This document shows positions 51,614 through 54,890 of a stretch of DNA of 64,000 nt, in pieces. A program made the position numbers and the translations under genes. The stretch's first letter is position 1; every line of letters begins with the position of its first letter. Origin of the DNA: Escherichia coli (GTDB lineage Bacteria; Pseudomonadota; Gammaproteobacteria; Enterobacterales; Enterobacteriaceae); NCBI RefSeq assembly GCF_003334815.1, contig NZ_QOWO01000006.1, one strand, 5' to 3'. The notes under the pieces are model-generated. The model saw only the letters and a list, made by a program, of their open reading frames with translations. It made no database searches and had not been told where the DNA came from.

Positions 51614-51633
51614 AATGGCAAGGTTTGTAACCT

Positions 51634-51669
51634 GTAGACCTGATAAGACGCGCAAGCGTCGCATCAGGC
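51634..51669. repeat. Single REP element between cysA and cysM
   Basis: GTAGACCTGATAAGACGCGCAAGCGTCGCATCAGGC. Confidence 0.8.
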
Positions 51670-51692
51670 AACACCACGTATGGATAGAGATC

Positions 51693-52604
51693 GTGAGTAC
51701 ATTAGAACAAACAATAGGCAATACGCCTCTGGTGAAGTTGCAGCGAATGGGGCCGGATAACGGCAGTGAAGTGTGGTTAAAACTGGAAGGCAATAACCCG
51801 GCAGGTTCGGTGAAAGATCGTGCGGCACTTTCGATGATCGTCGAGGCGGAAAAGCGCGGGGAAATTAAACCGGGTGATGTCTTAATCGAAGCCACCAGTG
51901 GTAACACCGGCATTGCGCTGGCAATGATTGCCGCGCTGAAAGGCTATCGCATGAAATTGCTGATGCCCGACAACATGAGCCAGGAACGCCGTGCGGCGAT
52001 GCGTGCTTATGGTGCGGAACTGATTCTTGTCACCAAAGAGCAGGGCATGGAAGGTGCGCGCGATCTGGCGCTGGAGATGGCGAATCGTGGCGAAGGAAAG
52101 CTGCTCGATCAGTTCAATAATCCCGATAACCCTTATGCGCATTACACCACCACTGGGCCGGAAATCTGGCAGCAAACCGGCGGGCGCATCACTCATTTTG
52201 TCTCCAGCATGGGGACGACCGGCACTATCACCGGCGTCTCACGCTTTATGCGCGAACAATCCAAACCGGTGACCATTGTCGGCCTGCAACCGGAAGAGGG
52301 CAGCAGCATTCCCGGCATTCGCCGCTGGCCTACGGAATATCTGCCGGGGATTTTCAACGCTTCTATGGTGGATGAGGTGCTGGATATTCATCAGCGCGAT
52401 GCGGAAAACACCATGCGCGAACTGGCGGTGCGGGAAGGAATATTCTGTGGCGTCAGCTCCGGCGGCGCGGTTGCCGGAGCACTGCGGGTGGCAAAAGCTA
52501 ACCCTGACGCGGTGGTGGTGGCGATCATCTGCGATCGTGGCGATCGCTACCTTTCTACCGGGGTGTTTGGGGAAGAGCATTTTAGCCAGGGGGCGGGGAT
52601 TTAA
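51693..52604 (+). CDS. cysM: Cysteine synthase B (O-acetylserine sulfhydrylase B)
   Basis: ORF track 51615..52604 begins inside the REP; trimmed to the GTG at 51693 giving (M)STLEQTIGNTPLVKL..., 303 aa. Confidence 0.9.
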   Translation: MSTLEQTIGNTPLVKLQRMGPDNGSEVWLKLEGNNPAGSVKDRAALSMIVEAEKRGEIKPGDVLIEATSGNTGIALAMIAALKGYRMKLLMPDNMSQERRAAMRAYGAELILVTKEQGMEGARDLALEMANRGEGKLLDQFNNPDNPYAHYTTTGPEIWQQTGGRITHFVSSMGTTGTITGVSRFMREQSKPVTIVGLQPEEGSSIPGIRRWPTEYLPGIFNASMVDEVLDIHQRDAENTMRELAVREGIFCGVSSGGAVAGALRVAKANPDAVVVAIICDRGDRYLSTGVFGEEHFSQGAGI

Positions 52605-52643
52605 GGATTAATAGCATCGGAGACTGATGACAAACGCAAAACT

Positions 52644-52741
<98 letters not shown>

Positions 52742-52792
52742 ATAAACAAAGCGCACTTTTTTAACAGTTGTTGCTGCCGACAAATGCAGTAT

Positions 52793-53527
52793 TTAATTTT
52801 CGTGAGGAAACGCCGTAAGGTCATCAATCATTTTTTGAAGTATTGGTGAGTCCTGACCGTCACCCCATTGAAGAATTTTTGCGGTAAGCTGATGACGCGC
52901 TAGTGCATTGAGTCCCATCTTTTTAAGTTTATGGGAGATTTTACCCATGACTTTAATCTGACCGAATGCAGTTGCGTAGGTAATCATATTGCTCTGGATA
53001 GTGCTCATTTCATCGACTAGTAATTGCGCACGAACATCCTCTTCAAGAATACTGTCCATAGCGATGTATTTCATACCCCACATAGTTTCAATTAACATTT
53101 GAGGGAAATCAGCACAGTCCAGATCCGGCTCTTTACGGAGGCTATTTTCAAGAACGTTTAGAGCATCAGCACCTTCATCGCTGCCAAAAGGAGATTCTTC
53201 ATCCCAGCAACACATATAAAGTGGATCAGTAAAATGGCACTGGAAGTTTGGGTGTGACGTTTTAACATGTAACCCAATTTCTTCATCATCAAAATAGTAG
53301 CGATCCATGAAGTTAAACTTTGGATCTTCTTGATAGCCTTTCTTCATTTTTGCGGCAATCAATTTACTGGCTTCTTTCAGACACTGTTCTTCATTATCGA
53401 ACTCTTTTGTCTGGAATTTACCAATACTACCTACCTTGCCATAGTTGACAGCTAAACTATCCCCTTCGTAATCTATCCACCAAAATTTATTCGATTTTTC
53501 ATCGTGATAAATAAAGCGTTTTTTCAT
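52793..53527 (-). CDS. yfeS: WGR-domain protein of unknown function YfeS
   Basis: 244-aa ORF; N-terminal ~75 aa resemble a WGR domain (NKFWWIDYEG...VNYGKVGSIGKFQTKEF...KMKKGY). Confidence 0.85.
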   Translation of the reverse strand: MKKRFIYHDEKSNKFWWIDYEGDSLAVNYGKVGSIGKFQTKEFDNEEQCLKEASKLIAAKMKKGYQEDPKFNFMDRYYFDDEEIGLHVKTSHPNFQCHFTDPLYMCCWDEESPFGSDEGADALNVLENSLRKEPDLDCADFPQMLIETMWGMKYIAMDSILEEDVRAQLLVDEMSTIQSNMITYATAFGQIKVMGKISHKLKKMGLNALARHQLTAKILQWGDGQDSPILQKMIDDLTAFPHEN

Positions 53528-53559
53528 GTTACCTCCTGTAAATGCCTTCCCAAAGCGGA

Positions 53560-53934
53560 TTAATTTCCTTCCGCAGGCACCGTTTTATCCGTCTGCGCAA
53601 TTAACGCATGTAAAAAAGGCTGTGCGTTCTCATCGCTCTTACCGGGGATCTTCACAATATACGGCTTCCCAGTAATCGATGACGACGAAGCAACCTTATC
53701 AATAAACTGCTCGGCAGTGTCAATGCGGTTACGGGTATTGCCGAGCTTCAGACGCAGATGAGAAACCGCTTCATAGCAGGTATGTTCATCACCGTTGCGC
53801 ACAAATATCAAATCCTTTTTCTGTGCTAATCCCTCCAGCATGGCGTTGATGCGGGCTTCTTCATGGGCAGTTAACTTCGCGTAAACGGGGAGTGTCATTA
53901 GTAGTGTAATGACCAGACAAATGATTTTCTTCAT
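53560..53934 (-). CDS. yfeK: Exported protein of unknown function YfeK
   Basis: 124-aa ORF with signal peptide [19 protein letters not shown]; 32 bp upstream of yfeS. Confidence 0.85.
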
Positions 53935-53959: not shown

Positions 53960-54002
<43 letters not shown>

Positions 54003-54038: not shown

Positions 54039-54890
54039 ATGAGTAGTTTGTTGTTGTTTAACGATAAGAGTAGGGCACTGCAGGCGGATATCGTCGCCGT
54101 GCAGTCGCAGGTGGTTTACGGCAGCGTGGGCAACAGCATTGCCGTGCCTGCTATCAAACAGAACGGCCTGAATGTCTTTGCCGTGCCGACGGTATTGCTG
54201 AGCAATACGCCGCATTATGACACTTTCTACGGTGGTGCGATTCCGGACGAATGGTTTAGCGGCTATTTGCGTGCGCTTCAGGAGCGTGATGCGCTGCGCC
54301 AACTTCGTGCTGTAACCACGGGCTATATGGGAACGGCATCGCAAATCAAAATCCTTGCCGAGTGGCTGACTGCGCTACGCAAAGACCATCCTGACCTATT
54401 GATCATGGTCGATCCGGTGATTGGCGATATTGATAGCGGAATTTATGTCAAACCTGACCTTCCCGAAGCGTATCGACAATATTTACTGCCGCTGGCGCAG
54501 GGAATTACCCCCAATATCTTTGAGTTGGAAATCCTGACCGGTAAAAATTGCCGCGATCTCGACAGTGCCATTGCTGCCGCAAAAAGTCTGCTTTCAGACA
54601 CATTAAAATGGGTGGTGGTTACCAGCGCCTCCGGTAATGAAGAAAATCAGGAGATGCAGGTTGTGGTGGTCACTGCCGACAGCGTGAATGTCATTTCCCA
54701 TTCACGGGTAAAAACCGACCTGAAAGGGACTGGCGACCTGTTTTGTGCTCAGCTCATCAGTGGCTTGCTGAAAGGGAAGGCGTTAACCGATGCAGTGCAC
54801 CGAGCGGGGTTGCGCGTACTGGAAGTGATGCGCTACACCCAGCAGCATGAGAGCGATGAATTGATTTTGCCGCCGCTGGCGGAAGCATAA
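54039..54890 (+). CDS. pdxK: Pyridoxal/pyridoxine/pyridoxamine kinase
   Basis: 283-aa ORF, ribokinase-like fold. Confidence 0.93.

Follow-up and report, generated by a model that had tools for sequence, protein, structure and literature searches.

The gene yfeS of Escherichia coli is very probably an acquired, strain-variable accessory cassette and not a partner of yfeK, the gene that it follows. We studied the pair in a 64,000-nucleotide stretch of contig NZ_QOWO01000006.1 (the window), in which the open reading frame (ORF) listing places yfeS at 52793..53527 (minus strand, ATG start, 244 amino acids) and yfeK at 53560..53934 (minus strand, ATG start, 124 amino acids). Both genes and the 32-bp gap between them are exactly as given in a first-pass annotation of the sequence, which had taken them for a conserved chromosomal module rather than something newly inserted. 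By analogy with the surroundings of its homologues, we propose that YfeS may be an orphan immunity-type protein of interbacterial conflict, a function that we hold tentatively and at somewhat less than an even chance; the favoured explanation as a whole, a horizontally acquired single-gene cassette with an orphan immunity-type function, we rate at about even. What we observed is the anatomy of the gene, its accessory distribution and foreign composition, its separation from yfeK in other genomes, the purifying selection on it and the neighbourhoods of its homologues; the immunity function and mechanism of YfeS are what we infer. YfeS, for which the first-pass annotation knew of no established function, belongs to the small remainder of K-12 proteins that still lack one, and a 2025 annotation study assigned it a regulator only (PMC12356324).

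Among 5426 complete E. coli genomes, 1387 (25.6%) carry yfeS, whereas yfeK and pdxK are present in all 5426. Genomes with the gene have one or two copies, nearly always chromosomal. In three yfeS-less genomes that we inspected, an O157:H7 strain among them, the stop codons of cysM and yfeK lie 2 bp apart; BLAST alignments to these genomes break at window positions 52610 and 53569, and K-12 has approximately 960 extra bp. This extra segment, delimited by BLAST and junction alignment as 52606..53571 (no strand), consists of REP (repetitive extragenic palindromic) elements, yfeS and the last yfeK codons. The guanine-cytosine (GC) content of yfeS is 0.392, and 0.367 at third codon positions (GC3), while yfeK, cysM and pdxK have GC of 0.46-0.56 and GC3 of 0.51-0.62. 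The counts contradict the description of the pair as a conserved chromosomal module, and the stop codons 2 bp apart together with the 39% GC of yfeS speak against the view that it is not a new insertion.

The two states also differ at the junction. YfeK ends in PAEGN where yfeS is present and in PAQ where it is absent, in E. coli and Pseudocitrobacter alike, and the 124-amino-acid, yfeS-linked form ending in PAEGN resembles the Klebsiella endings VAESQ and VENQ. The PAQ ending of the empty site could be a derived deletion product; the yfeS-less state may be ancestral or the result of a deletion. A repeat search found an 8-bp direct repeat, GGATTAAT, with a spacing of 952, whose left copy (52605..52612, plus strand) lies at the flank of the extra segment and whose right copy (53557..53564, plus strand) extends over the yfeK stop codon. 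Simple recombination between the two copies does not yield the empty site, and the pair may be a chance match.

The gene also decays in some lineages. An IS1 element interrupts it in strain LR-03, the copy of strain ET650 is truncated, and the product is only 155 amino acids long in a Shigella flexneri copy (P0042) and in a partial record of E. coli O9 (P0008). A 70%-identical copy on a plasmid record (NZ_CP098226.1) was considered as a plasmid paralogue and rejected: this 50-kb record, labelled a 'plasmid', repeats the chromosomal stretch ptsI-crr-pdxK-yfeK-yfeS-cysM-cysA with many frameshifts (locus L102, 1-11067) and is probably an assembly artefact or low-quality contig.

Outside Escherichia, Shigella and Pseudocitrobacter, the closest YfeS homologues, which include proteins of Paenibacillus, Lysinibacillus, Clostridium, Dysgonomonas and Bacteroidota, share at most 65% identity. 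When each prokaryotic species was scanned through a single genome, 174 relatives came up. They are distributed very patchily, in Bacillota, Bacteroidota, Neisseria, Fusobacterium and Spirochaetia and in a metagenome-assembled genome (MAG) of an archaeon (Methanomassiliicoccaceae), with Porphyromonas, Exiguobacterium and Flavobacterium also represented; Enterobacteriaceae contributed just a Pseudocitrobacter MAG and an Escherichia sp. The Pseudocitrobacter locus has the order cysM-REP-yfeS-yfeK, a layout as in E. coli, and its synonymous divergence (dS) from K-12 is 0.12 in yfeS, 1.11 in yfeK and 0.54 in cysM, the identity dropping gradually from yfeS into yfeK. Compared with a near-identical yfeS-less strain, K-12 is approximately 100% identical on both sides, and the differences are confined to a tract running from cysM into yfeK, within which several 150-bp bins of cysM show 93-97% identity. 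Because yfeS has a low dS, the identity decays gradually and the differing tract extends from cysM to yfeK, the alleles are likely to move by homologous recombination through the flanks; from these sequence comparisons, the presence and absence alleles seem to have spread in this way, and recently, also between genera. Against two diverged alleles the ratio of nonsynonymous to synonymous divergence (dN/dS) of yfeS is 0.16-0.20, indicating that the protein is under purifying selection. In the Pseudocitrobacter MAG, pdxK (locus L014, 5974-6797, against 54052-54878 in the window) is only 68.5% identical to K-12, while the crr-ptsI and cys genes flanking it are 90-92% identical, which suggests a replaced or fast-diverging pdxK allele.

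The linkage to yfeK is not found elsewhere. A tblastn search with YfeK against 80 loci of other species encoding a YfeS relative gave one match, the Pseudocitrobacter MAG with the same arrangement, and a YfeK profile had nothing at E<=1 in 95 non-enterobacterial loci with YfeS relatives while matching six of six positive controls at <=1e-66. Co-occurrence of the two genes outside E. coli, on which the module idea had been staked, is thus essentially lacking, with a YfeK-like gene in 0 of the 95 non-enterobacterial loci. YfeK homologues are present in Klebsiella, Salmonella, Enterobacter, Superficieibacter, Pseudocitrobacter and others, and their distribution looks vertical. The slot 3' of yfeK is occupied in Klebsiella by an unrelated SnoaL_3/DUF4440 gene of the SgcJ/EcaC family (locus L094, 3398-3793) and in Salmonella by a 116-amino-acid ORF of no family (locus L095, 3376-3726); in Enterobacter the yfeK locus is rearranged and a convergent DsbA-like gene lies 3' of yfeK (locus L105, 2867-3517). 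A toxin-antitoxin reading, with YfeK as the toxin and YfeS as the antidote, was rejected because approximately 74% of E. coli genomes retain yfeK without yfeS. The yfeK copy of E. coli O157:H7 FRIK944 (locus L001, 3995-4362) is marked in the annotation as a pseudogene with a frameshift.

The two genes nevertheless appear to share a transcript in K-12. A motif search located a sigma-E-type promoter, GAAACTT-N16-TCAAA, 5' of yfeK (53968..53995, minus strand), using what we take to be the sigma-E consensus; it is the sole match in the 64-kb window, and 3 of 100 shuffles give a match. Between the genes, a sequence scan found no sigma-70-like promoter or terminator above chance; the spacer, with both genes on the same strand, contains the Shine-Dalgarno sequence AGGAGG, read from the sequence at 53532..53537 (minus strand), 4 nt 5' of the yfeS ATG, and REP elements come after yfeS. 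As yfeS starts 32 bp 3' of yfeK with neither promoter nor terminator detected between them, its transcription in K-12 is probably by read-through from the sigma-E-dependent yfeK promoter. In line with this, yfeK is in the sigma-E promoter set (PMC3326320), the yfeKS operon was reported to be sigma-E controlled (PMC2685091, PMC11502571), both genes are co-induced with rpoE (PMC2685091), and their transcription rises together with SOS and sigma-E genes in restriction-induced death (PMC2685091). Carried by some strains only and, it seems, riding on the transcript of yfeK, yfeS probably owes its membership in the sigma-E regulon to an accident of its landing site.

The idea that the exported and the cytoplasmic product of a conserved yfeK-yfeS module cooperate, for example in envelope-stress signalling, draws on the close spacing of the genes on one strand, on their treatment as a single rpoE-co-induced operon in the studies just cited, and on the repetition of the arrangement in the Pseudocitrobacter MAG. 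We consider it highly improbable and already largely refuted: the 74% of genomes that keep yfeK alone, the absence of a YfeK-like neighbour from all 95 other loci with YfeS homologues, the unrelated genes at the yfeS position in Klebsiella and Salmonella, and the foreign composition of yfeS with a dS far below that of its flanks all count against it, as does the observation that overproduced YfeK arrests growth whereas overproduced YfeS has no effect (PMC2685091).

The first-pass annotation had recognised a WGR domain in the YfeS N-terminus, and this was borne out: residues 9-71 (53315..53503, minus strand) match WGR PF05406 in Pfam at E=1.2e-17, and the N-terminus has the fold of solved WGR structures. 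The family is matched by all 54 of 54 YfeS homologues. The W-G-R motif corresponds to Y29-G30-K31; 'WGRVG' of PARP3 aligns with 'YGKxG' in the YfeS family, in which G30 is invariant and K31 nearly invariant. YfeS is a true WGR-domain protein and not a PARP, as Pfam detects WGR only, with no PARP catalytic or regulatory domain, and the C-terminal domain has no PARP-like structural match. Pfam also finds in YfeS no DUF4132, the domain of MolR proteins. In NCBIfam the single hit of YfeS is limited to the WGR part and belongs to a Leptospira family, far below cut-off; PHROGs match the WGR part only, and the PADLOC defence models give no family at E<=1 for YfeS or YfeK.

The remainder of the protein, earlier described as free of recognisable motifs, indeed has no match in Pfam, PDB sequences or PDB folds. 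Alignment and modelling delimit it as residues ~72-240 (52808..53314, minus strand), a previously undescribed all-helical domain for which we coin the name YfeS-C. Modelled alone it folds confidently (predicted local distance difference test score, pLDDT, of 94.9); its N-terminal stretch is extended, and five longer helices come after it. Ten residues, T90, H92, Y104, P113, G115, D117, G119, D121, K192 and G195, are invariant in the 54 homologues down to 31% identity. A suspected likeness of the PFGSDEGxD motif to DUF4259 was unsupported by any scan and dropped. A Foldseek search of YfeS-C against AFDB50 gave uncharacterised proteins only, some of them WGR fusions and others stand-alone proteins of 165-190 amino acids; the latter are often named 'MolR family' or 'molybdate metabolism regulator' (UniProt/AFDB50), a name that on stand-alone proteins of 170-190 amino acids looks like annotation transfer with no evidence of function. 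Searched as a profile against 1.84 billion representatives, YfeS-C has 763 clusters at E<=1e-3 (clustered at 50% identity), and is a widespread helical domain, mislabelled in databases. It occurs alone or fused to WGR, DUF4253 or DUF4240 (11, 4 and 1, respectively, of 20 multidomain relatives scanned), and some WGR-YfeS-C relatives appear, by sequence, to have two WGR copies. Pfam links DUF4253 with SMI1_KNR4.

The case for immunity comes from the neighbourhoods of homologues. One of them, P0026 (54% identical), is found in four different arrays of small co-directional genes (loci L006-L009), the array genes of L006 having GC of 0.25-0.39. A tyrosine recombinase, a 379-amino-acid Phage_integrase + SAM_4 protein, is located 5' of the array in three of the four loci (L006-L008). 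Integron-like repeats number 11-14 per array in three loci and 5 in the fourth; an imperfect repeat, AACAA[AG]C ... CATTAG, is present in almost every intergenic region of L006 and flanks the YfeS-like gene on both sides in all four loci. The other cassettes of these arrays include Imm10, Imm19, Barstar, Macro, DUF4304 and SUKH/SMI1_KNR4. Similar company is kept in other contexts: the Paenibacillus homologue has Imm10 immediately 3', followed by DUF2199, DUF2750, GrpB and NUDIX; a JGI metagenome contig has WapI and Cys_rich_CPCC in the array; a strain-variable array of Bacteroides is headed by the YfeS homologue and contains Imm43 and GrpB; and a further array has Macro and GrpB. In Neisseria (loci L096 and L097, 6131-14762), arrays of small genes split gatC, gatA and gatB, the interrupting genes being a YfeS homologue, DUF6714, DUF4303, DUF2262 and DUF535; gatCAB is an unusual site for variable cargo. 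Altogether, Imm10, Imm19, Imm43, Barstar, WapI or SUKH was found within 7 kb in 6 of 10 distinct contexts, a figure with no background rate behind it. In a Pfam survey of 150 non-redundant neighbour ORFs, SMI1_KNR4, ankyrin, DUF4253 and DUF4272 were among the top families listed, with two or three members each.

These arrays match the hallmarks of the rAID-1 orphan immunity clusters of Bacteroidales (bioRxiv 10.1101/471110). By definition, such a cluster has at its 5' end a XerD-like recombinase sharing 44% identity or more with BF9343_RS08045, followed in one direction by at least two genes whose GC does not exceed 41%, with repetitive intergenic sequences (bioRxiv 10.1101/471110). The P0026 loci (L006-L009) agree with the definition in gene direction, GC (taken from L006) and repeats, of which there are 5-14 per array. 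Unlike rAID-1 genes, the E. coli yfeS stands alone among housekeeping genes with neither recombinase nor array repeats, and no toxin is known for the YfeS family; WGR is not mentioned in the text of bioRxiv 10.1101/471110. The immunity proteins of polymorphic toxin systems (for example the SUKH/SMI1-KNR4 and Imm families; PMC3482391) resemble YfeS in being small, cytoplasmic, patchy, horizontally transferred and found in multi-immunity arrays, and the fusion of YfeS-C to DUF4253 is a further point of resemblance. In contrast to them, YfeS homologues showed no adjoining cognate toxin in the loci examined and are unusually conserved, and WGR is missing from the text of PMC3482391.

The WGR proteins with established folds are a second point of comparison. 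The N-terminal ~70 residues of YfeS share a fold with the WGR domains of PARP1 and PARP3 and with the WGR-LRR (leucine-rich repeat) protein 2RA8 of Bacteroides fragilis, and the relationship is detectable in sequence; YfeS differs from them in its Y-G-K motif and its new helical C-terminal domain, with no LRR and no PARP regulatory or catalytic domain. MolR-type proteins (WGR + DUF4132, 'molybdate metabolism regulator') have an N-terminal WGR as in YfeS, and a 'WGR and DUF4132 domain-containing protein' was among the E. coli matches, but YfeS is without DUF4132.

As a mechanism, we envisage that a single-gene cassette would arrive by horizontal transfer and settle, together with REP elements, at the convergent cysM/yfeK junction, after which its alleles would be exchanged as a recombined tract ending inside cysM and inside yfeK. 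Transcribed as a passenger of the sigma-E-driven yfeK transcript, YfeS would shield the cytoplasm from an incoming toxin delivered by a competitor; the toxin would most likely be bound by the helical YfeS-C domain, and WGR could be an accessory module binding nucleic acid, nucleotide or toxin. The immunity neighbourhoods of the relatives thereby give the uncharacterised K-12 protein a testable function. Were this role true, a WGR-containing family would join the interbacterial defence repertoire, and laboratory E. coli would have an orphan immunity gene related to the array cassettes of gut Bacteroidales.

Several observations weigh against an immunity function. No toxin gene adjoins any homologue in the approximately 95 loci examined, a sample of the wider family of 763 clusters, and because no cognate toxin was seen beside them, the reading fails on one of its defining features; the candidates considered, large upstream ORFs, were S-layer-like (L038), TPR or housekeeping proteins and were rejected. 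Immunity proteins evolve fast and are not usually conserved to the degree seen here, with ten residues invariant down to 31% identity; this high conservation of YfeS-C could point to a ligand site or an enzyme. As the cargo of integron-like arrays is mixed, the association with them is weak evidence; the repeats of the P0026 arrays are absent near E. coli yfeS and from all other loci, and there is no recombinase at the E. coli locus. Unrelated families dominate the survey of 150 neighbour ORFs, which is heterogeneous and statistically weak with no background rate, and many homologues, such as those of Pseudomonas, Dysgonomonas, Porphyromonas and Exiguobacterium, are solitary in housekeeping contexts. 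The only published yfeS phenotype, moreover, is unrelated to competition: the minimum inhibitory concentration of boric acid was 45-50 mM for the deletion strain and 100 mM for the wild type, and complementation restored it to 65 mM (PMC11502571). The Dysgonomonas gene (locus L005, 5001-5732) shares its strand with the neighbours on either side, a gene for a major facilitator superfamily (MFS) transporter and trpC-trpF-trpA, and seems to lie within a tryptophan operon.

The boric-acid phenotype would fit a different reading of YfeS, as a stress factor of the cell itself. It would bind nucleic acid or nucleotide, its WGR domain sensing DNA damage or a nucleotide signal as in PARPs, and would aid survival of envelope or genotoxic stress. 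The genuine WGR fold, the rise of transcription with SOS and sigma-E genes (PMC2685091), the sensitivity of the deletion (PMC11502571) and the strongly conserved polar residues, which suit a ligand site, are all in its favour. We still regard such a role as unlikely, as read-through of yfeK transcription accounts for the co-induction, the phenotype was complemented only partly (PMC11502571), neither a PARP catalytic domain nor another catalytic domain was detected, and a patchy accessory distribution with cassette-like mobility is unusual for a housekeeping stress factor. The invariance of H92, D117, D121, K192 and Y104 over large evolutionary distances, together with the recurrence of Macro, NUDIX and GrpB enzymes in homologue arrays, would also be compatible with an enzymatic YfeS, no simple binder, which would undo or degrade the modification or signal that a toxin makes. 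The searches that we ran gave no structural or sequence likeness to any known enzyme, however, and the conserved motifs lie at helix ends in the YfeS model (TSHP precedes helix 93-98, GSDEG opens helix 117-132, and a glycine follows helix 162-194), where, judging from the model, they may be structural capping motifs; an enzymatic role we consider a long shot.

Mobility as a low-GC accessory cassette in integron-like arrays is likewise what would be expected of a gene from another conflict system, serving anti-phage defence, anti-defence or plasmid competition. PHROG families match the WGR part of YfeS, and YfeS-C-like ORFs, containing the C-domain only, occur on Listeria phage records; these, though, are short unannotated fragments with 31-33% identity. 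As no PADLOC model was matched, the annotated neighbours are immunity families and not known defence genes, and YfeS is a single gene with no obvious effector domain, we find this origin improbable.

An extension of the proposed immunity function to yfeK itself can be envisaged. The cysM-pdxK corner might be a sigma-E-wired orphan-immunity islet of Enterobacteriaceae in which periplasmic YfeK is immunity-type too, a notion to which we attach a low probability. The slot 3' of yfeK would then take exchangeable cytoplasmic cassettes (YfeS in E. coli, the SnoaL-like protein in Klebsiella and the 116-amino-acid ORF in Salmonella), envelope damage by contact-dependent attack would switch the defence on, and WGR + YfeS-C would be a new immunity family, possibly recognising toxins that act on nucleic acids. 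A YfeK paralogue, P0179 (loci L107 and L108, gene 2501-2866), is 73% identical, passes the NCBIfam YfeK cut-off and lies off the cysM-pdxK locus. It has on one side a PLD-domain protein of 823-829 amino acids and a Tli4_C-like protein and, in L108, on the other side a peptidoglycan-binding M23 peptidase. As these surroundings resemble a type VI secretion system (T6SS) effector/immunity neighbourhood, DUF5329 may, by analogy, be a periplasmic immunity-type family.

YfeK belongs to DUF5329 (profile match, E=5.6e-31), scores 276.7 bits against the NCBIfam YfeK model with a cut-off of 171, and is a core enterobacterial gene. It is exported, as the first-pass annotation had proposed on the basis of its signal peptide: a published list gives it a signal peptide of 19 residues (predicted probability 0.99; PMC10278209), and in the window residues 1-19, with cleavage after VYA, correspond to 53878..53934 (minus strand). 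The locus is flanked by cysA and cysM on one side and by pdxK, crr and ptsI on the other, as in E. coli K-12. The longest cysM ORF spans 51615-52604 (329 amino acids), and RefSeq CysM in other E. coli strains has 303 amino acids, the length expected from the GTG at 51693 as start; the stretch from 51615 to this GTG is probably not translated. Between cysM and yfeS, REP-type palindromes extend over 52640..52750 (no strand; inverted repeats I1 and I3, and Rfam), a region that matches Rfam ES036 at 40.9 bits, above the gathering threshold, and naRNA4 below it. The REP part of the query matched from at least 12 to at least 56 places per genome (median at least 40) in every E. coli genome.

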